From Xylella taiwanensis (GTDB lineage: Bacteria > Pseudomonadota > Gammaproteobacteria > Xanthomonadales > Xanthomonadaceae): a stretch of DNA of 32,000 bases. Both the position numbers and the translations under genes were made by a program. Positions 3,001 through 23,054 of this stretch are shown piece after piece (within the stretch, counting starts at the first letter, position 1; every line of letters begins with the position of its first letter). The DNA lies in the NCBI RefSeq assembly GCF_013177435.1, contig NZ_CP053627.1:2580001-2612000 (forward strand). The letters are read 5' to 3'. The notes beneath the pieces are model-generated. The model was given only the letters and a program-made list of their open reading frames with translations. It was not told the origin of the DNA and did no database searches.

Positions 3001-6000
3001 CGATGAGGCTGGCGGCGTCGGGATGGACGGTAAACAGGCGGTTGTTGGGCAGGATCAGGGGGCCAGGAACGGTGGTCGCGGTGGCCCAGGACGGGGCAGC
3101 CACGCTGATCGGGGCGTTGTCGGTGTGCAGGGTCGGTAGGCGGGCGTCCGCCAGGTCCTGCAGGGTGGTGTCGGGGATGGTCAGCGGGAGCTGGCTCTCC
3201 ACGGATAAGGCGGGCTCCTCGGCAGACTGGTCCGTGGTCGGAGCCGGGGTGAGCTCGGGCATCAGCGGCATCGGGGGGCTGGTGTGCAGGTCGCCCAGGG
3301 GTGGGTGTTCGACGTGGGTGGTGGTATGCAGGGATTGCAGGCGGTTGTTGACATCCACGGCGGCGATGTATTGGTGGCCGCCGCTGGTGATGCGCCCGCC
3401 AATTTGGCCGATGGTGTAGCGCTGGGACGGCATGGTCCAGGTCTCGGCGGCGCCGGCGTAGGTGTAGCTGATGTTGTTGAACTGCGTGGTGCGCGACAGT
3501 TCAGCGGTGAGGTTGTCGATGAGGCTGGCTTTGCTGTACTCCGGGGCTTTTTCGGGGTCCTTGGGCGGGTGTGGCGGCAGGCCAACGATGGTCTGGTCGC
3601 CACCGGCAAGGATGTCGGCGTAGTGGTTGGCCAGGCGGTCGACCTGGACGAACATGGCGCCGCCAGATTGGATCAGCGCCGCGGCGCCAGCGCCCGGTTG
3701 CAGGATGTCGTCGACGGTGGTCTTGGTGGCGTGGCGGTACTGTTCGTTGGTTTTGACATCCGTGGGGCCGCGGCGCATGTGGGTCAGGGTGTGGTCCGGG
3801 TCGGTGTAGTCACGCCAGGTGATCAGCCGGACGCAGTCGGTACGGCAGGTGCCGTAGGCCGGGTCGTAGGTCAGGACTTCGTCTTGGTAGGTGATGTGGA
3901 CGTCTTGTTGGCGTTCGTTTTTTTGGGGGGTGTCCAGGCCGGCCCAGGCGCTGCCCTGCCGGGCGGCGCTTTGGACTTGGTCGGGGTTGGGTTGTTGGTC
4001 TTGGCGGTCGGTGTAGTACAGCACGACGATGCCTTCGCGCTGGCTCAGGTCCAGGCGCTGGCGTTGGCCGCGGGCGGCATACAGGCCGCCGCGGGCATAC
4101 AGGTAGGCGCTGGTCTGCGGGGTCAGGCGCACCACGGCGCGGTGGATGATGTAGCCGTCCGGGGTGGTATAGGGTTCGTCTTGGAGGATGTCGTTGGGGT
4201 TGAGGTAGTAGATCTCGTGGGCGTCGTAGTTGCTGGTGAGAGTGAAGTCCGCGTCATTGTTGCGTTGGTTGTCGCGCCAGGCCGGTTGGGACATGCGTAC
4301 GGTGGTGCTCACGCCGGGCGCCTGGGTGAGGTGGACGTTGTCGCGGATGTTGTTGAGGGTGGTGGTGGTGATGTCCAAGGCGCCGTCCACGTCAATGGTG
4401 GCGCTGCGGTTGTCCAGCAGGGTGGCGCTGCCGGTGGCGTGGCGATCGCTATCCAAGGTGCCGCCAATGGCGGCATCGCCGGCGCTGTAGATCAGGGCGG
4501 CGCCGCTGTTACGCACGGTGGCCGCGCCAATGTCCAGGCGTTCGCGGGCGGCAATGGTGGCGGCGTGGGTCTGGCCGGCGGTGGATTCATCGCGGTTGGT
4601 GAGGGTCTGGGCCTGGAGGGCGAGGTGGTCGCCGTAGAGGCGCGCGGTGCCAATGTTGTCGAGGGTGGCGGCCTGGAGGTGGGTGGTGGCCGCATCAATC
4701 AGGCCGCGGTTGCTCAGGGTCGCAGTGGCGGTCAGTTGGGCCTGGCCGCTGGCGGTGATTTGGCCGGTGGCAGCGTTGTCAATGGTGCGGGCCTGCAGGG
4801 TCAGGTCGCCGGTGTGCAGCAGGCCGGCGTTGCTGAAGGTGTCCGCGGCGCTGAGCTGGGCTTGGCCGCTGGCAAGGATCTGGGCGGCGGCAGCGTTATC
4901 GATGCGCTGGGCGTGCAGGGTCAGGTCACGGCCCTGAAGCAGGCCGCTGTTGCTCAGGGTCGCGGTGGCGGTGAGTTGGGCTTGGCCGCTGGCAGCCATC
5001 TGCCCGGTGGCCACGTTATCGATGCGCTGGGCCTGCAGGGTCAGGTCACGGCCCTGAAGCAGGCCGCTGTTGCTCAGGGTCTCGGTCGCGGTGAGTTGGG
5101 CCTGGCCGCTGGCAGCCATCTGCCCGGTGGCCACGTTATCGATGTTCTGGGCGTGCAGGGTCAGGTCACGGCCCTGAAGCAGGCCGCTGTTGGTGAGGGT
5201 CTCGGTCGCGGTGAGTTGGGCTTGGCCGCTGGCAGTCATCTGCCCGGTGGCAGCGTTGTCAATGGTGCGGGCCTGCAGGGTCAGGTCGCCGGTGTGCAGC
5301 AGGCCAGCGTTGCTGAAGGTGTCCGCGGCGCTGAGCTGGGCTTGGCCGCTGGCAGCCATCTGCCCGGTGGCAGCGTTGTCAATGCGCTGGGCGTGCAGGG
5401 TCAGGTCGCCGGTGTGCAGCAGGCCGGCGTTGCTGAAGGTGTCCGCGGCGCTGAGCTGGGCTTGGCCGCTGGCAGCCATCTGCCCGGTGGCCACGTTATC
5501 GATGCGCTGGGCGTGCAGGGTCAGGTCCGCCGCCTGGATAAGGCCGCGGTTGTGCAGGGCCCCGGCGGTACGCACGGTGAGCAGGCCGGCGGCGCTGAGG
5601 GTGCCGCCGTTGTCCAGACCTTCCTGCAGGGCCAGGGTCAGGGCGGTGCCAGCATGCAGCAGGCCGGCGCCGCTGAAGGCGCTCAGGTGCAGGCTTTGGG
5701 CGCCGCCACTCAGCAGGGTGCCGGCTTGGTTGGTCAGTTGGGCGGCACTCAGCTGTAGGGTGCCGCCGGCAGTGAGGCGTCCGGCGGTGTTCTGCAGGGC
5801 GCCGCGTAGGGTCAGGGCGATGTCTTGGGCAGCGCTGAGGTGGCCATCGCGGTTATCCAGGGTGGTGCTGTCGATCTGCAGGTGGGTGGCGTGCAGGCCG
5901 GTGGCCGGGGCGGCGGTGTCACGGGGGCGGGAGCCAGGGTCCGGGGCCGCAGGGGTCGTTCGGTTGTCCAGGGTGGTGGTGGTGATCGCCAGGGCCCCGG

Positions 6001-8080
6001 CGGCGCTGATCAGGCCGTCGTGGTTGTCCAGGCGGTTGTCTAGGTGCAGGCGCGCATCCGCGCCGCTGTGCAGGCGTCCGCCGGTGTTGCTCAGGGTGTG
6101 GGCGTCGATCTGGAGACCGTTGGCGCCGCCAAGTTGGCCGCCAGCGGTGTTGTCAATGTGGGTGCTGTGCAGCTGGGTGGCGGCTTGGGAGAATACTTGG
6201 CCGCCGTGGTTGTTTAGGGTGGCGCTGCGCAGGTCGAGGGCGCCGCCAGCCAGTAGGGCGCCGCCGGCGCTGTTGTCCAGAAGGTGCGGGCCGGTGTCGA
6301 TGCGCAGGGCAGTGGCCGCTTGCACCAGGCCGGCACGGTTGTCTAGGACGCCGCTGTGCAGGGTCACGGTGCCGCTGGTGCTGCCCAGGCGGCCACCGCG
6401 GTTGTCCAAGGGTTGGTTTTGGGTGTACAGGGTCACTTGGGCGCCGCTCAGGGTGCCGGCGCGGTTGGTCAGGCCGGCGCTGCTGAGCCAGAGGGCTTCG
6501 CGACTCTGCAGCAGGCCGGCGCTGTTGTCCAGCAGGCCGCTCAGGTGCAGCTGCGCTGCGCCGGCCGCGTCCAGGGTGCCGTGTTGGTTGAACACGGTGG
6601 CCGCGCTCAGGCGCAGGTCTTGGCCGCTGGACAGGGTGCCGTTGTCTTGGTTGTTGAGGGTGCCAGTAACGTGCAGGTCCAGCAGACCGGTGGCGGTGTG
6701 CAGGACGCCGCCGCGGTTGTCCAGGGTGCTGGCGTGCAGGGTGCCAGGGCCGCTGAGCAGCAGCTGGCCTTGGGTGTTGTCCCAGGTGCCGGTGGTCAGG
6801 GTGGCCGGGCCAGTGAGCAATAGATGGCCGCCGCGGTTGTCTAGGGCTTGGGTGGCCTCCAGGCGGCTGGCGCCGGGGCCGGTGCTGTGCAGGGTGCCGC
6901 CGCGGTTATCCAGGGTGGCGGTGTGTAGGTCCAGCACGCCGTTGGTGGCGATGCTGCCGCCACGGTTGTCCAGGCGGGTGCGGGCCTCCAGTTGGAGGGC
7001 TTGGTCTGACTGGGCGGTAAGTTGGCCGCCGGCGGTGCTGAGGACGCCGGTACGGATGCTCACGTGCTGGGCCCAGGTGGTGCCTTGGCTCAGGTCGGTC
7101 TGGGTGCCGGTGATGCTCAGGGCGCCTTGGCTGCTCAGGGTGCCGCCGGGGCCGAAAAGGGTGGCGGCGTCGATCTGCAGGGACCCCTGCCCGCTGTGCT
7201 GTACGGTGCCGCCGCTGTTATCCAGGGTGGTGGCGTTGAGGGTGAGGGCGCTGCCGGTGCTGGATAGGGTGCCAGTGGTGTTGTCTAGCAGGCCACCAAT
7301 GCGCAGGTGGGCCGCCTGGGGGCCGGTGTGGAGGAGTTGGCCGCCACGGTTGTTGAGCTGGTGGGTCTGTAGGTCCAGGGCGCCGCTGGCCTGAAGTTGG
7401 CCGGCGTCATTAGTAAGTTGCCCGGTCTGCAGGGTCAGAGCGTTAGCCGCGCTGGCCAGCACGCCGTGTTGGTTGTCCAGTAGGCCATCAATGCGCAGGT
7501 GGGCCGCCTGGGGGCCGGTGTGGAGGAATTGGCCGCCACGGTTGCTGAACTGTTGGGTGTTCAGGGCCAGGGCGCCGCTGGCCTGAAGTTGGCCGGCGTC
7601 ATTAGTAAGTTGCCCGGTCTGCAGGGTCAGAGCGTTAGCCGCGCTGGCCAGCACGCCGTGTTGGTTGTCCAGTAGGCCATCAATGCGCAGGTGGGCCGCC
7701 TGGGGGCCGGTGTGGAGGAATTGGCCGCCACGGTTGTTGAACTGTTGGGTGTTCAGGTCCAGGGCGCCGCTGGCTTGGAGTTGCCCAGCGGCGTTGTTGA
7801 CCACTTGGCTGTGAATGAGGGCCTCTGCTGCAAGGTGCAGGATGCCGTGACGGTTATCCAACCCTTGGCCTTGCAGGGTCAGTTGGTTCAGGGCGGCGTG
7901 GCCGTGGCGGTTGTCCAGGCCGCTCAGGGTGGCGTTGATGGCGCCGCCAGCCGTGATGAGGCCGCCGCGGTTGTCAATGTCACTCTCTAGGGTCAGGCGA
8001 CCGTCGGCCAGCAGGGAGATGGCAGGGGGGGACGCAGGCAGGGGGGAGGTGTCGTTGCCAGGAGGTTCAATGGCAACGGA
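1..8080 (-). CDS. Body of a giant two-partner-secretion exoprotein (filamentous haemagglutinin / CdiA-BcpA-like). Partial: the 3-prime end lies beyond the left window edge. It is in frame with the TPS-domain ORF only if the C-tract at 8082-8091 changes length.
   Basis: I hand-translated the minus-strand frame with codon first bases = 1 mod 3 at 8080-7560, 5520-5400, 3420-1 and 60-1, and it is open throughout. It gives FHA-type repeats (LDNRHGxL, LTLQTGQLTNDAGQLQASGAL) and 40-aa repeats (LHAQRIDNVATGQMAASGQAQLSAADTFSNAGLLHTGD). It also gives the conserved CdiA/FhaB block NNRLFTVHP..VTDPHF..KRLGDGFYEQRLIREQIAQLTGRRLLDGY..QQYRALLDAGV..LRPGIALSADQMAQLTSDIVWLVEQPVTLPNGT..LVPRVYL. The ORF track lists no complete minus ORF in this frame, which fits a frame that never meets a stop inside the window. 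Confidence 0.85.
4700..5530. repeat. About 7 tandem copies of a 120-bp (40-codon) unit inside the exoprotein gene
   Basis: The string tcaggtc recurs at 4801, 4921, 5041, 5161, 5281, 5401 and 5521, at exactly 120-bp spacing. Long stretches are identical between units, and two sequence subtypes alternate. Confidence 0.9.
7297..7785. repeat. About 2.5 tandem copies of a 192-bp (64-codon) unit inside the exoprotein gene
   Basis: caatgcgcaggtgggccgcctgggggccggtgtggagga begins at 7297, 7489 and 7681. ctgaagttggccggcgtcattagtaagttgcccggtctgcagggtcagagcgttagcc begins at 7391 and 7583. The two central copies are nearly identical. Confidence 0.9.
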
Positions 8081-10432: not shown

Positions 10433-12087
10433 GGCTCGTTCCTCCTCCACGTGCTACAGCGATGCCCCCTGAAAACCGCTTTGATGCGCCTGGATCGGGC
10501 GGATTTCGCATCTCTGGAATAAACGCATCCGAACAACACGCAGCGCGCCCATGCTGCTCTTGCGCCGCGAGGACTGCGACGCTCTGTGCACCTGCACCGC
10601 GGAGCGTGGCGCTGGACGTTGTCTTGCTCATCTCGACCTGGGAAACGACCGCGCCGCGCATGACATCCACGGGTTGCACCATTTGCTGGAAGCGTGGCGT
10701 CATGGCCACCTCACCGTGTGGCAGAGCATCATCACAATCGCCGCGTTGCTGGCCGGTACTGCCAGCAACGCCACGCGGATTGGAGCTGCCCAATGATCGA
10801 CCCCGGCACGGTGGTCTCCGCGGCAGATGTTGCCGTCTCGCGCCAGAAGTCCTGAAGTGGCCCAGCCGTAAGAGCACCCGCGGCCACGCGCGGGTGATAC
10901 AGGACCAGGCGTTGGAGTGCGAGACAGTGCGCAGCACCCCGCAGATCGCCGCGCGCGTCGCAAGCGCAGCTGCCGCGTGGCAGGCCGGATCCATCAAGAC
11001 GCGGCGCGCAGCTGTCGCCCCCAAGGGCAGCACTCCAGCGGGCGCGGGGCCGCTGCACTGTTGGTCAGGGTGATCCCGATGCTCACCTACGGGTTTATGA
11101 CGCTGTACTGCACGACCTACACCGCAGCGGCCAGCGTCACCGCTGGCCGGGGTATGGGCATCCTGCACGCATGGACGGAAGCCAACCAAGCGCTGTGGGC
11201 CGGGGTGCTGGACGTGTAGTTTCTCGGGCACGTGTTCCACCGGGCGGGGTCGTGAGCGACGTGCCTCAAATGGTCATCGCATTGGTGAAGCGCTTCGAGA
11301 GAGTGCAGCGCATCGCGCAGCACGATCTGGGCCGCACGCATCCGTATCCGTACCTCTGAGCGGCTATGTTCTGGAGAATCGGCGACAGCCAGTTGCGCGA
11401 CACCAAACCGCCATCCATCACCGCGGCCACCGTGAACCCCGATCGAACACGCAGCCTCCAAACGGCGCTGCCGACACCCCTGGGTGACGGCCCCGTGCTG
11501 ACCATCACGCCGGAAGCGCCCCGCGCCGCCAGCGTAGACTTCATCTTCCATCTTGAGGCTGGGCGTCTCAGACATCGCCATTGCAGCGCCGTATCCACCA
11601 AGGATTGGGCCACTGTGCTGCAACGGAACAAGGCCGATCAATCTATGACGCTGGCCAGGATGCTGACACGGCGCAAGGCGGCGGCGGTTTGGCGGCTTCG
11701 CAACGCCTGATCCCACACCATGCCGCCGCCGTTGGTTTTACCGCCAAACAACTCCTTACATGTGATCCAGGACAACACGAAGCACGCCCCATGCGCCATT
11801 GATGCAAGGCAGCATGCAGCGCCGCGGTGCCATTGCGCGGCCTCGACATATCCTCACCAACCAGCCTGCTGGATGGGTTTGAGTGCGCCATGAAGACAGC
11901 AGCGACGCCGCTGATGCGCGAGGCCAGGTGCGCTACGTCCAACGTCGCCACAGCCAAGCAGCGCGGGTGCGCATGCTTGGGTGACGGGTGAGCGGGGCTC
12001 GCAACGAGGCGCGCCACGCCTGATATGGCGCGTTTCAGCCAGATGTGCCGCGCTGCAATCTGATGCGCCACCGTTAAACCGCCTTCC

Positions 12088-13035
12088 TCAGTCCGTCGTC
12101 TCTGGGATATCCCAATCACCCAATCTGGCTTCGCCGGTTTGATAGAACTGCTTCACCAGCTTCACGTATTCCAGAAAATCCCGGTTCTCGGTCGCCAGCC
12201 GGTTGGCCATGTCCCAATCGATTTCATCTCTTTCCCGGGCAGGAATTAACACCTGACTGTCTGCCGGATCTTCCACATCCAGTTTGATGAGCCCGATGCC
12301 ATGCGCCGCGAACAACATGCGTAATTCTTTGAGCGTGTGCTGGCCCTCGATCTCCGCGGCGACCAGATAGCCGAAATTCGCCCATGACGAATTGGAGACG
12401 GCCTGAAAGAAACATTCACGCACATTCGACTGGTTGATCAGCACCTTGGCCTCAAACGACCATAACGTGGTGCGCTTGTCGGAATACTGGTTGACACAAT
12501 CGCGGACTTCTTGGTGCCACTCAGCCCCCAAATCCTCCACCCCGACCACGTCCGGGTACAACCATCGGTTGCCGTTGGGCCCTCGCTTGTTGGATGCGCG
12601 CTTCTCGTCGATACGCTTTGAATACACCCCAAATTCCTCCCACAGATACAGCGACAGCAGTGGATAGAGCGCGTGCTCCCCCAGCGTCTTGCCATCGGTG
12701 TTCCTCGTAGTCGCCGTGGCGGCACTTTCAGCCGCCGCCACTTCCGCAACATCTGATTTTTCCGTGTAGTAGTACTTGCGTGGCTTGCCTTCGGTCGTCT
12801 TCAACTCCGGGTGTCGCTTCTGCAACCCAAGACGCCGGGAACCAATTTCCGCCTGCAACTGCTGCACCAAATCGCCATCGGTTTTGATGTTATGGTTTTT
12901 GCTATTGGCTTTTTTCTGCTGACACTCCGCAGGATAGGTGCTAAAGACCCATTCGGCGATCTGCCTTGCCGTCCACTTTTCTTCGGGACGTGCTTTTAAA
13001 CAATCCAATACCGCTTTCCCCAGATTCAATGTCAT
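12088..13035 (-). CDS. HARE-HTH (winged-helix) N-terminal domain fused to a PD-(D/E)xK restriction-endonuclease-fold C-terminal domain; last gene of the type IC R-M tail
   Basis: This is track ORF 12088..13050. I prefer the ATG at 13035 because AAGGAG lies 7 nt upstream of it. The N-terminus LGKAVLDCLKARPEEKWTARQIAEWVFSTYP....GKPRKYYYTE fits the HARE-HTH pattern. The C-terminus has EHALYPLL...WLYPDVVGVE...LWSFEAKVLI...QAVSNS, an E..D..ExK..Q nuclease-core arrangement. The amino-acid composition is protein-like and GC is lower than in the flanks. Confidence 0.75.
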   Translation of the reverse strand: MTLNLGKAVLDCLKARPEEKWTARQIAEWVFSTYPAECQQKKANSKNHNIKTDGDLVQQLQAEIGSRRLGLQKRHPELKTTEGKPRKYYYTEKSDVAEVAAAESAATATTRNTDGKTLGEHALYPLLSLYLWEEFGVYSKRIDEKRASNKRGPNGNRWLYPDVVGVEDLGAEWHQEVRDCVNQYSDKRTTLWSFEAKVLINQSNVRECFFQAVSNSSWANFGYLVAAEIEGQHTLKELRMLFAAHGIGLIKLDVEDPADSQVLIPARERDEIDWDMANRLATENRDFLEYVKLVKQFYQTGEARLGDWDIPETTD

Positions 13036-13046
13036 CACACGCTCCT

Positions 13047-13406
13047 TCACATCTTAAATAACGGCTTGATTGCCTTCTCAGTGGATACCAGGCGCTGCTC
13101 TGTTGCGTAGCGCTTCACCGCGGCGACGCTGGCTTGCGTACGCCACATTTCACGATTGACCCATGTTGCGCCATCAGACGCTTTGATACTGAGCTGGTCG
13201 ATCAGCTTAAACACATCATCCTGCTGATGCGACAGCGACCAGACGCGCTGCGCGCCCATGCATTGTTGCATCTCAAACGAATTGAATCGCACGCCGCTGC
13301 TTGCATTCCACTATTGCAGCAACCGAATGCTTGGTTTGAGCAACGTGTTGTTCTCCTGGTTTTTTGCTTCCAATGGGGCGTTGCAGGCGTTCAGATGGCT
13401 GATCAT
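13047..13406 (-). pseudogene. Small unknown gene (119 codons) with a strong SD+ATG but an in-frame TAG at codon 32. The 81-codon distal part is track ORF 13047..13292.
   Basis: GGAGG-gttga-ATG at 13406 opens MISHLNACNAPLEAKNQENNTLLKPSIRLLQ-TAG(13311-13313)-WNASSGVRFNSFEMQQ...KPLFKM. This is the same frame as the 81-aa track ORF. Its stop (13047) overlaps the SD of the next gene. Confidence 0.4.
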
Positions 13407-13609
13407 TCAACCCTCCGCCGCGTTGCGAATCTGCAACACGCCAAACCGCGGTGTTATCGCAAGCACCACGTCACCCGTGATGTGCTTGCGTTGGAGAACA
13501 AGCGTCGCTCTGGATGGATACAGGTGCGATGCCGCATCGCATTTTTCGACGCAGCTGTTCCATCTGTTGACCTACATCGGCACTGTAGCCGCGGTGTGAC
13601 GCAACACGA

Positions 13610-14326
13610 TCATGTCATCGATGTCTGAATGTTCATCCATCCACCGAGGCAAGATCGTGCCGCAGCAGACATGCGGAGCGCTTGCAGTGCTGCAATCGAC
13701 GTCGTGATCGACCACGGCGCACTTTCATCAAACAGCGTGCTACTGGCAATGTCGGTCAGCACTCTCAATAACCACAGCTGCCATGTCTTCTGGTCCACGT
13801 GCTAGGTCGCTGCGTCTTCATCGATTCTCTGACGCGCGGCAACGCATGCTCTGCGAGGACTCCTCGGGCTTTTCCGATGCAACGTATTGCGTGGGGCGGC
13901 CAGCACCTACAACCTGTCAGGCCATGCATCCCACCGATGCACCTGCAACAGCACACCCTCACGCAACAAACGTGCCTCGTTTTTAAGAAACAGGCATTGC
14001 GCTGCGGGCGCCGGATGTATCACTGCAGATGCGTTGGGTTTTAGAAACGTCAGCACCGCTGTAAGCCACGATGCCAGCAGGGTGCAACCACTCGCGCACT
14101 GAGCTTGGCTCTGCAGCAACGCGGCACCCACCATTGCACCCAGCACGGTAGCCGCACCACCCCGCCCATCATGGCGGTGTATCCACATCACGGGCGCCGC
14201 GGCCTTGAGATGTCCCGTGCTGGAGTACGTCGCATCCTCCTCGATCCGCTCAGCCTCGCGGCGCACCGCGGCCCTCATGGCCTCATGGGCGGTTTGGATT
14301 GAGCGCAGCCGCGCTCCCTGCCTCAC
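13610..14326 (-). pseudogene. SLATT-like two-transmembrane-helix protein gene, start-coupled to the hsdR stop (GTGA) and interrupted by two in-frame TAG codons
   Basis: Track ORFs 13907..14326 and 13610..13798 are in one frame, separated only by TAG at 13907-13909 and TAG at 13802-13804. The sequence RIEEDATYSSTGHLKAA..GGAATVLGAMVGAALL..CTLLASWLTAVLTFLKPNASAVIHPAPAAQCLFLKNEARLLRE matches the remembered SLATT pattern (E.s.lYSaKgHf.AA, two TM helices, FLnP.e.a..H..ag..Y..LrN.aR.f). The distal FDESAPWSITTSIAALQAL resembles the SLATT C-terminal sP.ip..ay..A segment. Confidence 0.5.
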
Positions 14327-17300
14327 GCCAACCCGAAATACCGTTCGAAGAACACAGCGAGTTTGTCCAGGACGATCCGCTTCTTAACGGCGTGGTCATT
14401 ATTCTTCGAGAACCGCGACACTGGCGGCAGAACTTTAGTGATTGCCGTGCCGATGGTCGAGACGCCACCGTCGCGGAACGCATTGTCAATGAATTCGCGA
14501 GCGGCCTCCGCGTTGAGGTTTTCTTCCGTGATGATCCGTTCCAACTCAGCCGTCTTTTTCGCTGCAACAAACGCCTGCCACTGCGCATCCACCTTGGTCT
14601 TGGTGTTGACCGCATCGACAAACTGTTCAATCACGTCTTTCCTGTGGCGCAGGCCAGGGCTGGCATTGACAGCGCCTTCAATGGTGCTGCGGATGTCCTG
14701 ATCATCGCCCGTCCCTTTTTTCTTCAGATACTGGGCGACCAGCCACAGGATGTAATCAACATTGACTTCTACCTGCTTGATGAGTTCGATTTCGAAGACC
14801 ACATCGTCATTGATGGATGCTGTCTCGGTCTCCGAGGTGCTGCGGAATGCCGCGTATAGATTCAAATACACACTCTGATAATCCTGAAAATCGCGCTCAC
14901 TGAGGATCTCGTGACCGGCAAAATCATCAAAGGAGGTCAAAATATTTTTCAGCCTCAGGATTGAGCCGAACAACTGGATAAATTCCTTTTGTGCTGCCTC
15001 GCCGACGATGGCGTTCCCGAGTGGGAATTTCGTAACAAGTTCCGCAACGCGCGTGGTGTAGTCCTGGTAATACGCCGCATAAGGCTTCAACAGCACGATG
15101 CCTTTAGCGTCCTTGTTGCCAAACAGCGCAAGCGCGGCGTTGGTTTCCTGCTCCAGATTGCGGAACGAAACAATGTTGCCGTACGTCTTGACCGAATTGA
15201 GGATGCGGTTAGTGCGCGAATACGCTTGTATCAAGCCGTGCGCCTTCAGGGGTTTGTCCACCCACAAGGTGTTGAGCGTGGTGGCATCAAAGCCGGTCAA
15301 AAACATGTTGACCACGATGACAATGTCCAACTGACGCGTTTTCAGACGCTCCGACACATTCTTGTAGTAGTTCTGAAACTCATCGGCCTTGATGCCGAAG
15401 CGAGTCGCGAACAGGGCGTTGTAATCCTGGATTGCCGCCTGGAGAAAATCCCGTGCACTTTGATCCAATCCCTCCGTTTCAAAGGCTTCCTCACCGAGCA
15501 GGCCATCACTGTCCTGCCCCTGCTCAGTCACGCTATAGATCAACCCCACCTTCAGCCGCTGCGCCTCGGGAAGCTCTTTTTGCTGTGCTGCAAATTCCGC
15601 GTAATAACGTTTGGCGGCCTCAATGGACGCGCAAGCAAACAAGGCGTTGAAGCCTGCGAGACGCTTGCCTTCATGGCTGTAGTGGCTGGCACGCTTGGTT
15701 TTTTGGTCGAAATGCGCGCGAATGTAGCCCACGATCTGAGTGATGCGCTGCGGTGCCAACAGCACCCGTTCGGTGTCGATCGCCGATATCGGCGTGTCCT
15801 GGCTCCCCGGAAGCGCTTTGATCGTGTTGATGTAGTCGATGCGAAACGGCAACACGTTTTTATCGTTGATGGCATCGACAATCGTGTAGGTGTGCAACTT
15901 TTCGCCAAACACCTGCGCGGTGGTGCGTCGCTGCGCGTTACTCGTACCGGCTGAATTCTCCGCAAAAATCGGCGTGCCGGTGAAGCCAAACAGGTGATAA
16001 CGCTGAAACACCCGAATGATGGCGGTATGCATGTCACCAAACTGGCTGCGGTGACACTCATCGAAAATCACCACCACATGGGCCGCATACACCGGGTGCT
16101 TATTGTGCTTGGCAACAAAGCGAGACAGCTTCTGGATCGTGGTGATGATGATGCGGGCATCAGCGTCTTCCAACTGCTGTTGCAGCACCGCCGTGGACGC
16201 ATTCGAGTTAGCCGCCCCTTTCTTGAAGCGCTCGTACTCTTGCATCGTCTGGTGATCCAGATCCTTGCGATCCACCACAAACAGCACCTTGTCGATCCCA
16301 GGCACGCCACACGCCAATTGCGCCGCCTTAAAACTAGTCAAGGTTTTACCGCTGCCGGTGGTGTGCCAGATGTAGCCGCCCGCCGCCACGCTTCCCCACT
16401 GCTTCTGATGGGCGGTGGTAACCATGCGTTGCAGGATGCGTTCGGCGGCCACAATCTGATAGGGCCGCATCACCAGCAAGGTACGATCCACCCGGAAAAC
16501 ACAGTATTTGGTGAGCACGTTTAGCAAGGAATGCTTAGCGAAAAACGTCTTGGTAAACCCCGTCAGTTCCGTAATCGGCTGGTTGCGCGCATCAGCCCAC
16601 CAACTGGTAAAGGCAAAGCTGTTGGAGGTGGTGCTCTTGCGGTGCTTGGCGGTGTGCTCCTTGACATGCGCCGCGCGCACCGTATTGCTGTAGTACTTGG
16701 TCAGCGTGCCATTACTGATCACAAACAGTTGCACGTACTGAAACAACCCCGAGCCCGCCCAAAAACTGCTCTGCTGGTAGCGGGTGATCTGATTGAAAGC
16801 CTCGCGGATATCCACGCCGCGGCGCTTTAACTCGATGTGCACCATCGGCAGGCCATTGACCAACACCGTCACGTCATAACGGTTGCCACGCTCCCCCTTG
16901 ACGGTGTACTGATTGATCACCTGCAAGGTGTTGTTATGGATGTTGTCCTTGTCGATCAAATAGATGTTCTTGGTGGTGCCGTCGTCGCGCTTCAACAGCT
17001 GCACAGGGTCTTCTTGAAGGCGCGCGGTTTTTTCCACGATGCCATCATTCGCGCCTGCGATGCAGGTGCTGAAAAAACGCTCCCACTCCGCCTCAGACAG
17101 GGTGATCTTGTTGAGTTTTTCCAACTGGCGGCGCAGATTGGCCACCAATTCAGCCTCCGAGGTGATGCGCAGATACTCATACGCCTGCTGCTGCAATTGG
17201 TGAATAAACGCCTGTTCCAATTCGGCTTCAGACTGGTACGCCGTCTCACGCACCCCGAGCGTATCGAGCTGAAATTCGGCAACAACTGTGCTGTCGTCAG

Positions 17301-17346
17301 ACACGGCAATGGGCGCGTAACGGAACGGGGTGCGGGGTTCGCTCAT
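14323..17346 (-). CDS. hsdR: Type I restriction enzyme R subunit, EcoR124I-like (type IC)
   Basis: This is track ORF 14323..17598, trimmed to the ATG at 17346 (MSEPRTPF), which overlaps the hsdS stop as ATGA. It is collinear with remembered EcoR124I HsdR blocks: YQSEAELEQAFI, NRYDVTVLVNGLPMVHIELKRRGVDIREAFNQI, LLVMRPYQIVAAERIL, GGYIWHTTGSGKTLTSFKAA, VVDRKDLDHQT, FDECHRSQFG, FGFTGTPIF, FLTGFDATTLNTLWVDK, QAYSRTNRI, EENLNAEAAREFI. Confidence 0.97.
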   Translation of the reverse strand: MSEPRTPFRYAPIAVSDDSTVVAEFQLDTLGVRETAYQSEAELEQAFIHQLQQQAYEYLRITSEAELVANLRRQLEKLNKITLSEAEWERFFSTCIAGANDGIVEKTARLQEDPVQLLKRDDGTTKNIYLIDKDNIHNNTLQVINQYTVKGERGNRYDVTVLVNGLPMVHIELKRRGVDIREAFNQITRYQQSSFWAGSGLFQYVQLFVISNGTLTKYYSNTVRAAHVKEHTAKHRKSTTSNSFAFTSWWADARNQPITELTGFTKTFFAKHSLLNVLTKYCVFRVDRTLLVMRPYQIVAAERILQRMVTTAHQKQWGSVAAGGYIWHTTGSGKTLTSFKAAQLACGVPGIDKVLFVVDRKDLDHQTMQEYERFKKGAANSNASTAVLQQQLEDADARIIITTIQKLSRFVAKHNKHPVYAAHVVVIFDECHRSQFGDMHTAIIRVFQRYHLFGFTGTPIFAENSAGTSNAQRRTTAQVFGEKLHTYTIVDAINDKNVLPFRIDYINTIKALPGSQDTPISAIDTERVLLAPQRITQIVGYIRAHFDQKTKRASHYSHEGKRLAGFNALFACASIEAAKRYYAEFAAQQKELPEAQRLKVGLIYSVTEQGQDSDGLLGEEAFETEGLDQSARDFLQAAIQDYNALFATRFGIKADEFQNYYKNVSERLKTRQLDIVIVVNMFLTGFDATTLNTLWVDKPLKAHGLIQAYSRTNRILNSVKTYGNIVSFRNLEQETNAALALFGNKDAKGIVLLKPYAAYYQDYTTRVAELVTKFPLGNAIVGEAAQKEFIQLFGSILRLKNILTSFDDFAGHEILSERDFQDYQSVYLNLYAAFRSTSETETASINDDVVFEIELIKQVEVNVDYILWLVAQYLKKKGTGDDQDIRSTIEGAVNASPGLRHRKDVIEQFVDAVNTKTKVDAQWQAFVAAKKTAELERIITEENLNAEAAREFIDNAFRDGGVSTIGTAITKVLPPVSRFSKNNDHAVKKRIVLDKLAVFFERYFGLA

Positions 17347-18515
17347 CTGGCTTCCTTGAAGGTGAGTAGCCGGTCGCGGTAATACGCATATTGCTGGCGG
17401 CGGGCTTGGATTTCGGCGGGCAGACCGAAGGAAATATCGTTGACCAGCGCATCGAAGCGATCGAGGATGGCAACGATGCGGGCTTGTTCTTCTAGAGGGG
17501 GAATGGGAATCGCATAACTTTTGATGATCCCGGAATTCAAATCGGCTCGCGCGCCCTGCCCCAAAGCCTTGAGCCTCTCGTATTCCTTGCTGACCCAATG
17601 AAATACGTATCTGTAATTGGCTTGAGTCGGATCAACTTCCAAGTTGCAACAGTGTTGGTTGGTAGTCAGCGGAATCTTATTGATTGCAGACCGGGCTGCT
17701 GTTGCACCTGATATAGCGACAATGACGCAATTGGCCGGAATCCATTTTGCCGCCGACTCCTTGAGCCCCTTCTCAGTGATTTTAATTTCAGTATCCAAAA
17801 TATCTGTATATCGGACTTCCTGAGTACGCAACCACGGAATATCACCTCCGTAGTAATCGGTACGCGTAGATAATGGGGTTCCGCCAGACGAAACAGATTT
17901 GCAAATCTCACCCAAAGTCATCCACCTGATGCTTGCATCAACATCCGTGCGCTCACCGAACGTCAAGAGCGCATCGCGATAGTAGGTGTACTGCCGCCGA
18001 CGCGCATGCAACTCCGCATGCAACTCCGCATGCAACTGGGTGAAAGTATCAAGCATTTTCACGATTTCGCGTTGCACTTCGAGGGGTGGAAGGGGGGCTT
18101 TGACTTGATCAAGCGTTCCAACTGCAAGCGCAGGCTGCGCCGCTTTCGTCGCGTACTGATTCAAATTCATGACGGAAAGCAAATGGAATGCCCAATCCAT
18201 GTCCACTTCAACTTTTCCATTGCAGACAACAGCATTATCTGTTGCGAAGAATTTCCCGTGAGTTCGCTTCACATTTCCACACAGTGCACCTATTCGCCCG
18301 ATGAGGATGTACTTGCCCTCTTGATTGTTTTGCCGAACGAACCCACGGATACCATTACTGCCATAGCACGGATACAGAAAATGCTCGTCTTGGATTTTGG
18401 ATATTTCATTGGAGGAAATGAACTTTCCTGCCTTCATGTCGAATATCTCACACAGTGTCTTAAACTCCACCCCCTCTGGGCAAAGCGCTGCAATCAACTC
18501 ATCAATCCGACTCAT
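17343..18515 (-). CDS. hsdS: Type I R-M specificity subunit with two target-recognition domains
   Basis: The conserved spacer motif occurs twice: LEVQREIVKMLDTFTQLHAELHAELHARRRQYTYYRDALLTF (central) and LEEQARIVAILDRFDALVNDISFGLPAEIQARRQQYAYYRDRLLTF (C-terminal). Two AT-richer variable blocks lie between them. It sits between hsdM and hsdR, and its stop forms an ATGA overlap with the hsdR start. Confidence 0.95.
   Translation of the reverse strand: MSRIDELIAALCPEGVEFKTLCEIFDMKAGKFISSNEISKIQDEHFLYPCYGSNGIRGFVRQNNQEGKYILIGRIGALCGNVKRTHGKFFATDNAVVCNGKVEVDMDWAFHLLSVMNLNQYATKAAQPALAVGTLDQVKAPLPPLEVQREIVKMLDTFTQLHAELHAELHARRRQYTYYRDALLTFGERTDVDASIRWMTLGEICKSVSSGGTPLSTRTDYYGGDIPWLRTQEVRYTDILDTEIKITEKGLKESAAKWIPANCVIVAISGATAARSAINKIPLTTNQHCCNLEVDPTQANYRYVFHWVSKEYERLKALGQGARADLNSGIIKSYAIPIPPLEEQARIVAILDRFDALVNDISFGLPAEIQARRQQYAYYRDRLLTFKEAR
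18004..18039. repeat. Three tandem 12-bp units (gcatgcaactcc x2, gcatgcaactgg) encoding QLHA-ELHA-ELHA in the central conserved region of hsdS
   Basis: Read directly: units at 18004-18015, 18016-18027 and 18028-18039. Only the last two bases of unit 3 differ. Confidence 0.95.
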
Positions 18516-18517
18516 GC

Positions 18518-18763
18518 CTATTTCTTTCCACTGATTGTTTTCTGCAGCGTCTGCACCGTTTCCAAAGAGGCCACCTCCACATCAAACACCTGGGCGGCGC
18601 AGTGCGCACGGTCTTGCTGATAGTCCACTGCAACGTTACCCATCGCTTGCTGGTCACTGATGTGGCGCGCGCGTTGCCAGGCGGTGCCGCGCATGGCGAC
18701 GCTCCATGGCTGCACATGGGAGCGCCGCTGTTTGATGATGTCACCACTGGGTAGCTCACTCAT
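18518..18763 (-). CDS. Unknown 81-aa protein encoded between hsdM and hsdS
   Basis: Its ATG overlaps the hsdM stop (ccATGAgt at 18760-18763). Its TAG stop is 2 nt before the hsdS ATG (18515). I recognise no motif. The alternative-frame ORF 18502..18759 is Ser/Cys/Pro/Arg-rich and less plausible. Confidence 0.55.
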   Translation of the reverse strand: MSELPSGDIIKQRRSHVQPWSVAMRGTAWQRARHISDQQAMGNVAVDYQQDRAHCAAQVFDVEVASLETVQTLQKTISGKK

Positions 18764-20340
18764 GGCTGGTCTCCTTCCAGATCGGCCACGATGGCATCAA
18801 TCTGCTGTCTCAATTGCGCTTGTCTTGCCACGATGCGGGCGATTTCGGTATTGAGCGCCTTGATGTCGGTGGTCTGGCGGGTGTCGGCCTGCTCAACGTA
18901 ACTGGACACGGCAATGTTGTAGGCGTTGGCGGCAATGTCGGCATTCTCGACCAAGCGTGCGAAGTGGTCGCTGTTCTGGCGAGCGATACAGGCGTCGAGT
19001 ATTTTTTGCCGATGTTCGGGCAGCAGCTTGTTCTTGTTGCCGCTACGCACGAACAAACTTGATGCATCAATAAACAGCGTGGCGTTATCGAACTTGGATT
19101 TCTTCAGCACAATGATGCACGTCGCAATCGTGGTGCCGAAGAACAGATCAGGCGGCAACTGGATCACGGCATCCACGTAATTGTTATCGATAAGGTACTG
19201 GCGGATTTTCTGCTCCGCACCACCGCGATACAGCACGCCGGGAAACTCAACAATCGCCGCGGTCCCGTTGACTGCTAGCCAACTCAGCATGTGCAGGGTG
19301 AACGCGAGATCCGCCTTGCTTTTGGGGGCGAGCACCCCTGCGGGCGCAAAACGCGCGTCGTTGATCAGCAAGGGATTAGCATCGCCCTCCCATTTGGTCG
19401 AGTACGGCGGATTGGAGACGATAGCCTCGAAGGGCTCATCGTCCCAGTGCGCCGGGTCAGTCAGGGTGTCGCCGTGGGCGATATGGAACTTTTCGTAATC
19501 CACATTGTGCAGAAACATATTGATGCGGCACAGGTTGTAGGTGGTGAGGTTGATCTCCTGCCCGTAGAAGCCCTGGCGTACCTTGCCGTGACCCAGCACC
19601 TTGACGACGTTGAGCAACAACGAGCCCGAGCCGCACGCCGGGTCATACACCTTGTTGACCTCGGTCTTGCCGACCAGGGTGATGCGGGCCAGCAATTCAG
19701 AGACTTCCTGCGGGGTATAGAACTCGCCGCCGGACTTGCCCGCCGTGGAGGCGTACATCTGCATCAGGTATTCGTAGGCGTCGCCAAACAAATCGATGGT
19801 GTTGTCAGCAAATCCGTTACTGCCGCCGGCCAGGGGCAAGTCGCCGATGGCATTGAGCAGCTTGACCAATTTTTCATTGCGCTTGGCGACCGTGGGGCCG
19901 AGCTTGTTGCTGTTGACGTCGAGATCATCAAACAGCCCCTTGAAGTTGGCCTCGCTGGCGGCACCCATGGCCGAGCGTTGGATGTTGGCAAAGATGCGCG
20001 CCAAGGTTTCGTTGAGGTTGTCGTCCTGCTCAGCACGCGCGCGCACGTTGCAAAACAGTGCGGAAGGCAGGATGTAAAAGCCTTTTTCATCCACCGTCAC
20101 GGCGCGGCCGGACTCGGCATCTTCATCGCTCAAGGTGACGTAGTCGGAATCGGCATTGCCCGCGCGACGCTCTTCCCCGTTGAGGTAGCTGGTCAGGTTC
20201 TCGGAGATGAAGCGGTAGAACAACATCCCCAACACATAAGTCTTGAAGTCCCAGCCATCCACACTGCCGCGCAGGTCATTGGCGATGCGCCAGATGGTTT
20301 TGTGCAGCTCGGCGCGTTCGAGTTCTTTGGTGTTGCTCAC
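18760..20340 (-). CDS. hsdM: Type I R-M N6-adenine DNA methyltransferase subunit (type IC-like)
   Basis: The HsdM N-terminal block is LHKTIWRIANDLRGSVDGWDFKTYVLGMLFYRFISE. The AdoMet motif is VYDPACGSGSLLL and the catalytic motif is IVSNPPYSTKW. The start is a GTG at 20340 with gggag upstream. Confidence 0.97.
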   Translation of the reverse strand: MSNTKELERAELHKTIWRIANDLRGSVDGWDFKTYVLGMLFYRFISENLTSYLNGEERRAGNADSDYVTLSDEDAESGRAVTVDEKGFYILPSALFCNVRARAEQDDNLNETLARIFANIQRSAMGAASEANFKGLFDDLDVNSNKLGPTVAKRNEKLVKLLNAIGDLPLAGGSNGFADNTIDLFGDAYEYLMQMYASTAGKSGGEFYTPQEVSELLARITLVGKTEVNKVYDPACGSGSLLLNVVKVLGHGKVRQGFYGQEINLTTYNLCRINMFLHNVDYEKFHIAHGDTLTDPAHWDDEPFEAIVSNPPYSTKWEGDANPLLINDARFAPAGVLAPKSKADLAFTLHMLSWLAVNGTAAIVEFPGVLYRGGAEQKIRQYLIDNNYVDAVIQLPPDLFFGTTIATCIIVLKKSKFDNATLFIDASSLFVRSGNKNKLLPEHRQKILDACIARQNSDHFARLVENADIAANAYNIAVSSYVEQADTRQTTDIKALNTEIARIVARQAQLRQQIDAIVADLEGDQP

Positions 20341-20397: not shown

Positions 20398-21394
20398 TCA
20401 AGGTTCCAATGGGTACTCAATACATTCATCAGGCGGGTGTGCCGTTTGGTCAGAAACTGTGGAGGTCCTGTCGCGTTGCGACCGGACGTGCTGCCTCAGG
20501 ATCAAGAGCGGCGCGGTTGTTGCCCTTGAAGGACACCCGCGGCCTGGCGCCCGGATGCTTGCGGACATGCCGTAGCACCAGAGGGGCGCGCCAGTCTGGC
20601 CAAGCCGCGCGTGCATCTCCGTCAGGACACCACTGCATCCCATCCGAGGCGGCGATAGTACGTGCTGCAGTGACCGTTGGTCGAATGGCTGGGTTCTGCT
20701 GGCGTCGCTGACCAGGGCGCCGAGGCGCGTGCTCAGCAGCATCTGCAGCTTGGATAGCAGGCGATAGATGCCGTGATCAAGTGCAGCAACAACGCGGGCT
20801 GTGCGGGGTTTTTCATGGCCTTGGTGATGCGCACGCGCAGCGCGCTCTTGAAGGCGTCTGGCTCAATCTCCTTGGTGAACGCGGTATCCGTCTCGATGCG
20901 CGGGTGGCTACTCGCCTTGGTGATCCGCACGCAGCAGGTCAGCCGTTTGCGCCACTGATAATGTGCGCGACGGCAAGACGTCGCCAAGCCGCTGGGGTGG
21001 CTGCAGCACACAGGTGACATAGAGCAACGCCCGATGCACCCAATGCTTGAAGTCCACGCGGTAGCGTCGCGGCGTGCCCGATGGCCGCAACGTCGGCATC
21101 GCGAGCAGCGTTGCACACGGCGGCGCACGGTGTGATGACCTGGTCCATCAGATCGATGCGGGCCTGGTCCGCGGTGAGGTGTTCTTGAAACGCTTTGACC
21201 TGCGTGTCCTGCGGCTGCTTGGCGTAGAAACTGCGGACATGGCCAAACAGATCACCGCAGGCATCGCGGCCCAGCACGCTTACGATGCGACTGCATCCCT
21301 TGGTGTAGCGGCGGCGTTTGGGTTGACCTGCCATCGCACGGATCAGGCGTAGCACCTGCACCTTGACGCGGTCGCACTCCCGATGATTGAGCAC
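20398..21394 (-). pseudogene. Multiply frameshifted gene of unknown family; its 5-prime end is the unit of the adjacent tandem repeat
   Basis: Protein-like segments are scattered over three minus-strand frames. They are AAWRRCAVLNHRECDRVKVQVLRLIRAMAGQPKRRRYTKGCSRIVSVLGRDACGDLFGHVRSFYAKQPQDTQVKAFQEHLTADQARIDLMDQVI, then RRYRVDFKHWVHRALLYV, then IETDTAFTKEIEPDAFKSALRVRITKAMKNP, then LSKLQMLLSTRLGALVS. I could not assign a family, and a mobile-element gene is only a guess. Confidence 0.3.
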
Positions 21395-22378
21395 CGCGCA
21401 GCGGCGCCACGCGGCTTTGAGATCGGATGCGCCGCTGACCAGCAGCGCGCCGGCGTGGGCGGAAATCCTTCCACAGCGTGCTCACATCCACGGGCGATAG
21501 CCTCTTAGCCGTGTCCAGCCGCGGGGTGATGTTCGCGTGGCAGTACCGGCGGCGGTGTTGCAGCGTGCCGGTCATCGCACTCCCGATTGGTGAGCACCGC
21601 GCAGCGGCGCCACGCGGCTTTGAGATCGGATGCGCCGCTGACCAGCAGCGCGCCAGCGTTGGCGGAAATCCTTCCACAGCGTGCTCACATCCACGGGCGA
21701 TAGCCTCTTAGCCGTGTCCAGCCGCGGTGTGATGTTCGCGCGGCAGTAGCGACGGCGGTGTTGCAGCGTGCCGGTCATCGCACTCCCGATTGGTGAGCAC
21801 CGCGCAGCGGCGCCACACGGCTTTGAGATCGGATATGAAGCTGACCAGCAGCGCGCCGGCGTGGGCGGAAATCCTTCCACAGCGTGCTCACATCCACGGG
21901 CGATAGCCTCTTAGCCGTGTCCAGCCGCGGGGTGATGTTCGCGCGGCAGTACCGGCGGCGGTGTTGCAACGTGCCGGTCATCGCACTCCCGATTGGTGAG
22001 CACCGCGCAGCGGCATCACACGGCTTTGAGATCGGGTGCACCGCTGACCAGCAGCGCGCCGGCGTGGGCGAAATCCTTCCACAGCGTGCTCAAATCGGCG
22101 GGCGATAGCCCTTGGCCGTGTGCAGCCGCGGGGTGATGTTCGCGCGGCAGTACCGGCGGCAGTGTTGCAGCGTGCCGGTCATCGCGCTCCCGATTGGTGA
22201 GCACCGCGCAGCGGCATCACATGGCTTTGAGATCGGATATGAAGCTGACCAGCAGCGCGCCAGCGTTGGCGGAAATCCTTCCACAGCGTGCTCAAATCGG
22301 AGGGCGATAGCCTCTTGGCCGTGTCCAGCCGCGGGGTGATGTTCGCACGGCAGTACCGGCGGCGGTGTTGCAGTGTGG
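21391..22378. repeat. Five tandem copies of a ~203-bp unit (periods 203, 203, 203, 201; last copy partial), mosaic and roughly nine-tenths identical by eye
   Basis: gcaccgcgcagcgg begins at 21391, 21594, 21797, 22000 and 22201. The copies differ in short patches: gatgcgccg vs gatatgaag, ccggcgtggg vs ccagcgttgg, cacatccacggg vs caaatcggcggg. On the minus strand each unit carries GGGAG-tgcg-ATG followed by MTGTLQHRRRYCRANITPRL(D/H)TAK.LSP.D(V/L)STLWKDF. Confidence 0.95.
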
Positions 22379-23054
22379 CGGTGTCGACACCAAATGGCTG
22401 GAATCGCGTCAAGGACTGCTCTCTGCGCTGGTGGCCGCGCTCCAGGGCGACCCGGCAGGCGAGCGCGACTTTTTGCAGCGTTGCGGCTTACGGCCACTCC
22501 CAAAGCGACTGCGCTTGCGTGTTCTGGACGCAACGCTGCGCGCCGCTGTGGGTGGCGTTGGCGATCTCTGTGCACCCTACGCGGACATCGCCACGCTCAA
22601 CATCCAGCCCACCCATGTCTTTATTGTGAAAAACCTGCAACCCGGGCTTGCGTTCGATGACCTGGCAGGGGCAGTGGTGCTCATGGCGCAGGGGTATGCG
22701 CTTGATGTACTGGGTGAGCTGGCATGGCTGCAACAGGCGCAATGCTTCTACTGGGGCGACATCGATACACATGGCTTTGCCATGCTGCATCGCGCCAGAA
22801 CATAGCTGCCCCACATCACCAGTGTGCTGATGGATGCGGCCACGCTGCTGAATCATCGCGATGCATGGGTGGAAGAAGAAAAACCGCACCCTGCCGACGG
22901 CTTTGCATCCCTCACCGCCACCGAACAACAGCTCTATCAATCGATCAAGACAGGGGGCTTCACCCACAATACCTTGATCAACAACATCCGCCTGGAGCAG
23001 GAGCGGATCCCCTGGGACATTGCGTGGGCCGCACTTCAAGCCTGTCTTGGATGA
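22365..23054 (+). pseudogene. jetD: 5-prime-truncated Wadjet jetD (DUF3322/DUF2220, Toprim-like) remnant with an in-frame TAG at 22803-22805
   Basis: Track ORFs 22365..22805 and 22824..23054 are in the same frame. The sequence THVFIVKNLQPGLAF..VVLMAQGYALDVLGELAWLQQAQCFYWGDIDTHGFAMLHRART-TAG-LPHITSVLMDAATLLNHRDAWVEEE...LTATEQQLYQ...IRLEQERIPW matches the remembered JetD C-terminal pattern (vENl, YWGDlDthGfaIL..lR..fP.v.SlLMD..Tl, LT..E, RLEQErI). Only about 225 of the roughly 390 expected codons are present, and no jetABC lies upstream. Confidence 0.75.

Follow-up and report, generated by a model that had tools for sequence, protein, structure and literature searches.

SMODS–SLATT gene pairs were reportedly described by Burroughs and colleagues in 2015, and the closest known system built on such a pair is the type I cyclic oligonucleotide-based antiphage signalling system (CBASS) with a two-transmembrane (2TM) effector. 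A second relevant family, HrgA, has been without an assigned function since 2002. Laganeckas et al. (PMC3045609) predicted that DUF511/HrgA proteins combine a canonical PD-(D/E)XK site with an N-terminal winged helix, for which the closest template was the N-domain of RNA polymerase delta, and Steczkiewicz et al. (PMC3424549) equated DUF511, PF04373 and COG2958 and listed them as a PD-(D/E)XK family of unknown function. Here we describe a locus of Xylella taiwanensis where both kinds of gene adjoin: positions 12088-14326 of a 32,000-nucleotide stretch of DNA (the window, whose coordinates are used throughout), directly behind the hsdR gene of a type IC restriction–modification (R-M) system. 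All genes from hsdM to hrgA lie on the minus strand. A sequence-only reading had seen in this segment one unnamed three-gene module, made up of a SLATT membrane gene, a small adaptor and a modification-sensing nuclease, which would act as a second line of defence chained to the R-M system. The segment is a familiar defence island with known kinds of parts, not a new three-gene system. Very probably, it holds a dead type I CBASS and an intact hrgA, which are hotspot neighbours at the end of a decayed prophage rather than one coupled machine. The parts are:

13802..14326, minus strand: pseudogene of a SLATT_4 2TM CBASS effector (PADLOC PDLC00712, NCBIfam SLATT_4, 51% amino acid identity to the L003 orthologue)
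13047..13777, minus strand: pseudogene of a minimal SMODS/CD-NTase cyclase (tblastn with the intact 258-residue cyclase, PADLOC PDLC00769)
12088..13035, minus strand: hrgA, COG2958/DUF511 family, intact, 315 residues (NCBI name, AlphaFold 2 model, conserved residues, BFVD matches)

The frame that opens at GTG 14326 runs for 139 codons to a TAG (13909-13907) and, when read through, reaches a second TAG at 13804-13802. Its read-through translation matches the PADLOC model of the CBASS 2TM effector, PDLC00712, near end to end (E=6.5e-39) and NCBIfam SLATT_4 (NF033632) at 52.5 bits (E=4.7e-14; the curated cutoff is 55 bits), and a Pfam search with it gave no SLATT match. The PDLC00712 match, with the SLATT_4 score just short of its cutoff, supports the proposal that a 2TM effector of the SLATT family, part of a nucleotide-signalling system, once stood here. 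The intact 163-residue orthologue (L003:3736-4224) scores 134 bits against SLATT_4 and E=9e-76 against PDLC00712, and tblastn aligns it with the window over 164 residues at 51% identity, with both TAGs inside the alignment. In Kyte-Doolittle profiles, the orthologue has two peaks (residues ~35-55 and 58-79), of which the second alone stays above threshold in the window frame. Two hydrophobic helices had been reported for this frame, and one strongly hydrophobic helix is left. The gene has an in-frame TAG (13909-13907) and a premature TAG (13804-13802), its canonical Met is lost and its first transmembrane helix is degraded.

The supposed adaptor proved to be part of a cyclase. The 119-codon frame (13406-13050) does exist, with its GGAGG-ATG start, one internal TAG (13313-13311) and a terminal TGA at 13049-13047 that overlaps the AAGGAG of the 315-codon gene, as had been noted. 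It is not a separate small gene but the 3' part of a cyclase pseudogene: it matches positions 148-259 of the 261 in PADLOC cyclase model PDLC00769 (E=2.5e-20) and aligns with residues 140-258 of an intact 258-residue SMODS cyclase, which make up its C-terminal half. Even the GGAGG before the ATG corresponds to the codons for the conserved Gly-Gly of the cyclase stretch ...GSGGWM.... By tblastn, cyclase residues 3-36 fall in the SLATT frame (13771-13667) and residues 56-258 in a different one (13661-13047; 44% identity, E=2e-51). The lesions comprise a frameshift between 13667 and 13661, a TAG at 13574-13572, a TGA at 13409-13407 and the TAG at 13313-13311, and 61 gap columns separate the pseudogene from its orthologues. 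The intact cyclase has the GSSTRG...DID...FDLV motifs, a Pfam SMODS match and a PDLC00769 match over its entire length (E=2e-118). The window copy lacks the CD-NTase signature G-S...DxD...D, since the G-S region (GSSTRG in the orthologue) is gone in the frameshift/deletion and three stops follow. There is no intact open reading frame (ORF) in any frame from 14326 to 13050, and a word-indexed homologue search with the 119-residue fragment returned only X. taiwanensis fragments.

The partner of the SLATT gene is an SMODS cyclase in all intact loci and an SMODS pseudogene in the window. At the intact locus L003/L004 (contigs encoding close HrgA homologues) the order is hsdR (type IC), the 163-residue protein, the 258-residue Pfam-SMODS protein and hrgA. 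The sole gene accompanying the cyclase is the 2TM gene; no Cap2/Cap3 or HORMA/TRIP13 genes were found, the neighbours being hsdR and hrgA. Judged by these matches, the two pseudogenes are a decayed two-gene type I CBASS operon, and so the first two genes belong to a named system, although none had been recognized. By analogy with the CBASS family, the cyclase of the intact relatives would sense infection and then make a cyclic (oligo)nucleotide. This signal would activate the 2TM effector, leading to membrane damage and an aborted infection. To our knowledge, no member of this exact 258-residue SMODS cyclase clade has been tested.

Among themselves, intact orthologues of the CBASS pair share 80-97% identity, compared to 51% (2TM) and 44% (cyclase) for the window copies, and the amino acid divergence of the pseudogenes is ~3-4 times that of the neighbouring genes. 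The flanking hsdR (83%), hsdM (82-87%) and hrgA (79-89%) are conserved as in other genomes and show the codon-position pattern of purifying selection (identities of 0.88/0.94/0.63 in hrgA). Four X. taiwanensis genomes share segment 12088-14326 at 100% identity, and therefore the pseudogenes are fixed in the sampled species. The in-frame TAGs that had been noted in the SLATT and 119-codon frames are all present, and TAG accounts for four of the five internal stops, which might suggest that the stops are read through or recoded and that both genes still function. Yet recoding of TAG is not viable, because the damage extends to a TGA stop and a frameshift, the canonical start is lost and 61 gap columns take in the G-S catalytic region. 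Together with the degraded first transmembrane helix and identities of 44-51% compared to 80-97% among intact orthologues, this leaves read-through barely credible. The same CBASS has decayed independently elsewhere: at L103:8600-10000, an hsdS-like frame continues into the C-terminal ~160 residues of an SMODS cyclase, and the 2TM gene and the cyclase N-terminus are deleted.

The hsdR stop (TGA 14325-14323) does overlap GTG 14326-14324, as reported. We considered whether the SLATT gene started instead at ATG 14278, which is the annotated start in L003, with the GTG overlap a coincidence. This was rejected: the orthologues' N-terminal motif M-x-x-IQTTDQA-K-ISAL is encoded upstream of ATG 14278 (upstream frames were read in 16 loci), so the SLATT gene began at or near the hsdR stop. 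The window retains the motif as ...RSIQTAHEAMRAAV..., encoded from 14326 onwards and ahead of 14278, the first ATG; the canonical Met is mutated, and GTG 14326 is the sole in-frame start remaining. The closest type IC relatives (L019, L021 and L022) have GCGTGATGAAG at this junction, where a GTG/ATG overlaps the hsdR stop. The tight packing is thus real in this lineage, but behind other upstream genes the SLATT start sits after a gap of 3-27 nt with its own GGAGG.

To see how the genes associate, we scanned one genome per species, which gave 80 hrgA loci (71 with enough upstream sequence), and IMG/VR, which gave 80 more; the counts are approximate. SLATT+SMODS lies immediately 5' of hrgA in 13 of the 71 genome loci (18%), behind IC or non-IC type I R-M systems or behind a DUF1156-methylase/SNF2-PLD system, and also on several IMG/VR contigs. 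Type I R-M systems of several families occur within 10 kb upstream of hrgA in 41 of 60 loci, and a patatin + DncV-like CBASS was counted in one of the 71 genome loci and seen in L001, L013, L091, L096 and L145. Other upstream cargo includes YgjP, bacteriophage exclusion (BREX) genes with GmrSD, DUF1156 methylase + SNF2-PLD and a HerA + kinase set like that of the methylation-associated defence system (MADS). In some loci plain housekeeping genes (mnmE, pnp/selO, ftsH, tctA) precede hrgA, and in L107 an hsdR of the window's type IC kind is joined straight to it. Whatever its identity, the preceding gene ends 4-14 nt before the hrgA start.

About 80% of hrgA loci have no cyclase upstream. Conversely, a SLATT+SMODS pair of this same kind (85-89% identical) is found without hrgA in Massilia putida, Variovorax, Ralstonia and Acidithiobacillus. 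In M. putida the pair stands at a Mu-like prophage end; in the other three it follows a DUF1156/DUF499 (PADLOC HmaC) set, with TcmP in the hrgA position, and a TIR gene adjoins it in two of the three. Since hrgA occurs without a cyclase and the pair without hrgA, the three genes are frequent hotspot neighbours and not an obligate module. Co-occurrence of SLATT gene, partner and nuclease was found, in the 13 genomes and the IMG/VR contigs, but it is not obligatory. A three-gene module would account for frames that are contiguous and co-oriented with stops and starts overlapping or nearly so, for the recurrence of SLATT+SMODS+hrgA and for the GTGATG over the hsdR stop in type IC relatives. It fits poorly with an adaptor that is the C-terminal half of a cyclase, with hrgA loci that have only housekeeping genes upstream, with pairs that stand behind non-IC R-M or DUF1156-methylase systems or apart from hrgA, and with the death of the first two genes in the window while hrgA is conserved. 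We consider such a module, coupled to R-M, very unlikely.

Some survey loci deserve mention in their own right. At related prophage ends, in L170 (8835-10405), L171 and L172, TcmP (TIGR04474, 170 bits; a weak PADLOC PDC-M41A match) replaces hrgA, convergent to a DUF5131 gene and with the same SLATT+SMODS pair upstream. This 275-residue gene was considered as a divergent HrgA and rejected, the hhalign probability being 0.3%. Directly 5' of hrgA in L012 and L018 (19-9952) is a six-gene cluster whose products include a Ser/Thr kinase, a HerA helicase and proteins without Pfam matches (1414, 274 and 380 residues). PADLOC matches are to mad6, mad8 and PD-T4-6. The cluster resembles a MADS-type system, with large components that lack annotation. 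At L010:5124-5597 and L105:5133-5606, between hsdS and hsdR of a YgjP-type type I R-M operon, there is a weak CD-NTase-like match, at 25-26% identity to the DncV-like cyclase.

We turn now to the intact gene. Its protein is 100% identical to the X. taiwanensis entry that NCBI names ‘HrgA protein / COG2958 family protein’, and has a predicted winged helix and PD-(D/E)XK nuclease fold. By this identity the 315-residue protein is HrgA, so that it, too, belongs to a named and published family. A word index returned 5,500 homologues, many of them 80-89% identical and in beta- and gammaproteobacteria, and an exhaustive HMMER search gave 1,379 clusters at 50% identity. Across 57 diverse members there is no variation at P161, D162, K197 and Q211, and conservation reaches at least 90% at E120 and E195. 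With the alignment of these 57, AlphaFold 2 reached a predicted local distance difference test score (pLDDT) of 90.8; with 46 sequences at least 80% identical, the pLDDT of the C-terminal domain was below 50. The model has a winged helix at residues 1-90 (pLDDT ~90) and a core that places E120 at the head of helix 120-135, D162 ahead of strand 163-168 and E195/K197 inside strand 189-200. This arrangement fits the PD-(D/E)XK superfamily pattern, E...(P)D...(D/E)xK on an alpha-beta-beta-beta-alpha-beta core. A Foldseek search of BFVD returned MmcB-like phage proteins (E=1.2e-4 to 1.2e-3), MmcB being a PD-(D/E)XK family.

Foldseek against the PDB gave no significant match for the nuclease core and weak winged-helix matches to forkhead, Z-alpha and TubR domains; PDB sequence searches with the single HrgA sequence and with the 57-member profile found nothing. 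The earlier description of the protein stands as regards the nuclease core (E120, D162, E195, K197) and the winged helix. Its HARE-HTH-like assignment of the N-terminus is not established: the window protein has no Pfam match to PF05066 at E<=1, and weak matches occur in 3 of 116 family representatives (best E=7e-4). Nor did a Pfam search yield a DUF511 match for the window protein or the 116 relatives, stray weak matches aside. An Mrr_N domain is present in two long relatives.

The nuclease gene had been singled out as the only intact one, and rightly so, as ORF 13035-12088 is free of lesions and the other two genes are pseudogenes. At least six disabling lesions were counted over the adjoining 1.28 kb; hrgA, 948 bp long, has none, where a Poisson estimate expects ~5 (probability of none <1%). 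Both neighbours of hrgA are decayed, the CBASS on one side and a phage lysis module on the other, and hrgA and hsdMSR are intact. The survival of hrgA between the two suggests that selection acts on HrgA and is the strongest sign in these data that the protein serves the host independently.

The lysis module marks the end of a prophage. In relatives, hrgA is almost always followed 3' by a convergent 96-residue gene (58 of 58 IMG/VR loci, 41 of 67 genome loci) and then by endolysin, phrog_6637, DUF6127 and tail genes, and in many IMG/VR contigs it is the very last gene. These conserved downstream lysis and tail genes, together with the position at contig ends, identify hrgA as the terminal gene of a prophage family. 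In the window, decayed remnants of this module remain, at 38-57% identity by tblastn to the intact genes for those in 10530..11707. Their names are taken from PHROG/Pfam matches of the intact relatives' genes:

11806..11970, plus strand: remnant of the 96-residue gene, which in relatives converges on hrgA (55 residues at 49% identity by tblastn)
11252-11707, plus strand: endolysin remnant (tblastn)
10810-11243, plus strand: phrog_6637 homologue, split in two frames (tblastn)
10530-10793, plus strand: DUF6127 remnant (tblastn)

The GC content of 10530-11970 is 62-65%, and that of the R-M/hrgA block 53-57%. A different layout occurs in alphaproteobacterial and some IMG/VR loci (L082-L085, L139, L140, L143 and L148), in which an endolysin on the opposite strand is directly upstream of hrgA; hrgA there lies between endolysin and 96-residue gene, with an R-M/YgjP block beyond the endolysin.

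What might HrgA do at this position? In the relatives, hrgA stays constant as the terminal gene of the prophage, beside the lysis cassette and oriented with the defence cargo, and variable defence cassettes insert directly 5' of it. HrgA would bind DNA by its winged helix and cut with its PD-(D/E)XK site, protecting the lysogen. Going by the model, it most likely acts alone, binding and cutting DNA to the benefit of the lysogen, and we infer a restriction-like or superinfection-exclusion role. Tentatively, we extend this to a joint proposal that is probably wrong in part: HrgA would be an autonomous anti-phage/anti-plasmid nuclease that anchors a previously undescribed prophage-end hotspot of defence exchange and that the host has retained after phage and CBASS decayed. 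Type I R-M, BREX, MADS, DUF1156-methylase and two CBASS types would be swapped exactly at the hrgA 5' edge, in a prophage family widespread in beta- and gammaproteobacteria.

The cargo itself raises another possibility. Most identified systems next to hrgA have a DNA methyltransferase (type I R-M in the 41 of 60 loci, BREX PglX, DUF1156 methylase, MADS), and HrgA could be an accessory or back-up nuclease of methylation-based defence, for instance by reading foreign modification in a type IV-like manner or as a nuclease that R-M, BREX or MADS systems recruit, with its position functional. In line with this, type I R-M operons contain or adjoin distant members of the family at 33-44% identity (L154, L160, L163), the two long members carry Mrr_N and the H. 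pylori hrgA adjoins M.HpyIII (PMC3045609). On the other hand, hrgA directly follows housekeeping genes, with no methylase system, in L023, L025, L044 and L087, and such loci argue against a dependence on methylase-based neighbours. Moreover, the specificities of the neighbouring systems are unrelated, and the position of a methylase near DUF511 genes is not conserved (PMC3045609). We hold an accessory role to be improbable.

HrgA could also serve the phage life cycle, for example in degrading host DNA, as a homing-type nuclease or as an accessory of the lysis module, and so be part of the prophage backbone and not host-protective. Its linkage to the 96-residue gene and endolysin is tight (the 58 IMG/VR loci), an endolysin is directly upstream in alphaproteobacterial loci L082-L085, and its amino acid identity across genera (75-90%) resembles that of backbone genes. 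However, hrgA runs counter to the lysis and tail genes, in the direction of the defence cargo, was not found in PHROGs or in deposited phage genomes, and is intact in X. taiwanensis though the adjoining prophage lysis genes are pseudogenes. This role, too, appears rather unlikely, and an autonomous nuclease remains the reading that we prefer.

Several results weigh against our account of the locus. The 258-residue cyclase clade scores 92 bits against the NCBIfam CBASS_cyclase equivalog, whose cutoff is 200. HrgA matches no Pfam, PADLOC or PHROG model, and no NCBIfam model either, and tblastn with HrgA found no match among 50,697 deposited phage genomes (INPHARED). The survey called genes by tblastn and from crude ORFs, so that its counts are approximate. 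Finally, 2TM+SMODS directly before hrgA (18% of loci, with gaps of 4-14 nt) is commoner than a random neighbour would be, and this leaves some room for functional interplay.

Upstream of the dead operon, the R-M system of the window is type IC with all three ORFs intact, having an EcoR124-type HsdR C-terminus, hsdM and hsdS:

18760..20340, minus strand: hsdM, intact, 526 residues (Pfam N6_Mtase E=8.5e-111 and HsdM_N; 82-87% amino acid identity to relatives)
17343..18515, minus strand: hsdS, intact, 390 residues (Pfam Methylase_S E=7e-47, two stretches)
14323..17346, minus strand: hsdR, type IC, intact, 1007 residues (Pfam HSDR_N, SWI2_SNF2, T1R_D3-like and EcoR124_C)

The type IC assignment of hsdR had been made from the sequence, and EcoR124_C (E=1e-71) confirms it; NCBIfam hsdR scores 553 bits. 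The alignment of hsdR with relatives is free of gaps, with nucleotide identities of 0.79-0.81 and 83% at the amino acid level. The 245-bp gap between hsdM and hsdS is occupied by an 81-codon ORF (18518-18763, minus strand) without a family match. In relatives, hsdS begins ~3 nt past hsdM and HsdS is longer (~435 residues compared to 390 in the window); the ORF may be a remnant of an exchange of hsdS target-recognition domains. Upstream of hsdM, at 21372-22382, is a 203-bp tandem repeat (5.0 copies, 93% matches) with an ORF of ~68 codons per unit, whose copy number varies among X. taiwanensis assemblies (5 in L005, at least 8.2 in L008, at a contig end). An Rfam search with the repeat gave no match, as did an Rfam scan of the whole window, and a promoter and terminator scan found nothing exceeding shuffled background. 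Positions 1-8000 differ from the rest of the window in composition (GC 65-71%, strongly positive GC skew of 0.13-0.30, AT skew ~-0.3) and are a two-partner-secretion/filamentous haemagglutinin gene in genome records.

For annotation, these results mean that a single dead CBASS operon underlies the apparent SLATT gene and small ORF. An abortive-infection system and its carrier prophage have been lost from X. taiwanensis, which has kept the type IC R-M system and HrgA, a pattern of retention that shows which defence genes remain useful to a reduced, host-restricted plant pathogen. For HrgA, the locus and its relatives amount to a natural experiment in retention under decay, and contexts with and without R-M, and with and without CBASS, form a clean comparison set. 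Should the hotspot generalize, new defence cargo could be sought with hrgA as the marker. The value that remains lies in the hotspot and in HrgA, a well-framed candidate.

The operon shares with described 2TM-effector CBASS of type I the gene pair, its order (effector, then cyclase) and the lack of Cap2, Cap3 and HORMA; its intact orthologues fit PDLC00712 and PDLC00769 end to end, as well as SLATT_4 and Pfam SMODS. It differs in that both window copies are pseudogenes and that the cyclase clade is minimal (258 residues) and under the NCBIfam CBASS_cyclase equivalog cutoffs. Panoptes (mCpol OptS + S-2TM-beta OptE; PMC12657218) is likewise a two-gene operon of cyclase and 2TM effector, found in defence islands and often beside CBASS. 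We rejected it as the identity of the pair, as the window cyclase is a Pol-beta-type SMODS and not an mCpol; the effector, moreover, is SLATT_4 and not S-2TM-beta.

HrgA resembles winged-helix fusion endonucleases and Mrr-type type IV enzymes (PMC11037411, which does not mention HrgA) in joining a winged-helix DNA-binding or modification-reading domain to a PD-(D/E)XK-type nuclease, and two HrgA members carry Mrr_N. Yet HrgA has no sequence-level membership in these groups. With the HrgA/COG2958/DUF511 family it shares the NCBI name, a length of ~315 residues, the winged helix and PD-(D/E)XK core and adjacent R-M genes. The proteobacterial subfamily of the window differs in being prophage-borne, 60-90% conserved across genera and unmatched by Pfam DUF511.

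The hotspot, in turn, may be set beside the defence hotspots of P2/P4-type prophages and satellites, which Rousset et al. are said to have described in 2022. The hrgA hotspot, described from the present survey alone, belongs to another prophage family (of beta-, gamma- and some alphaproteobacteria), and its anchor, hrgA, itself has a nuclease fold. In both, however, a conserved phage backbone flanks the exchange site, and the cargo, near the prophage end, is oriented against the late genes.

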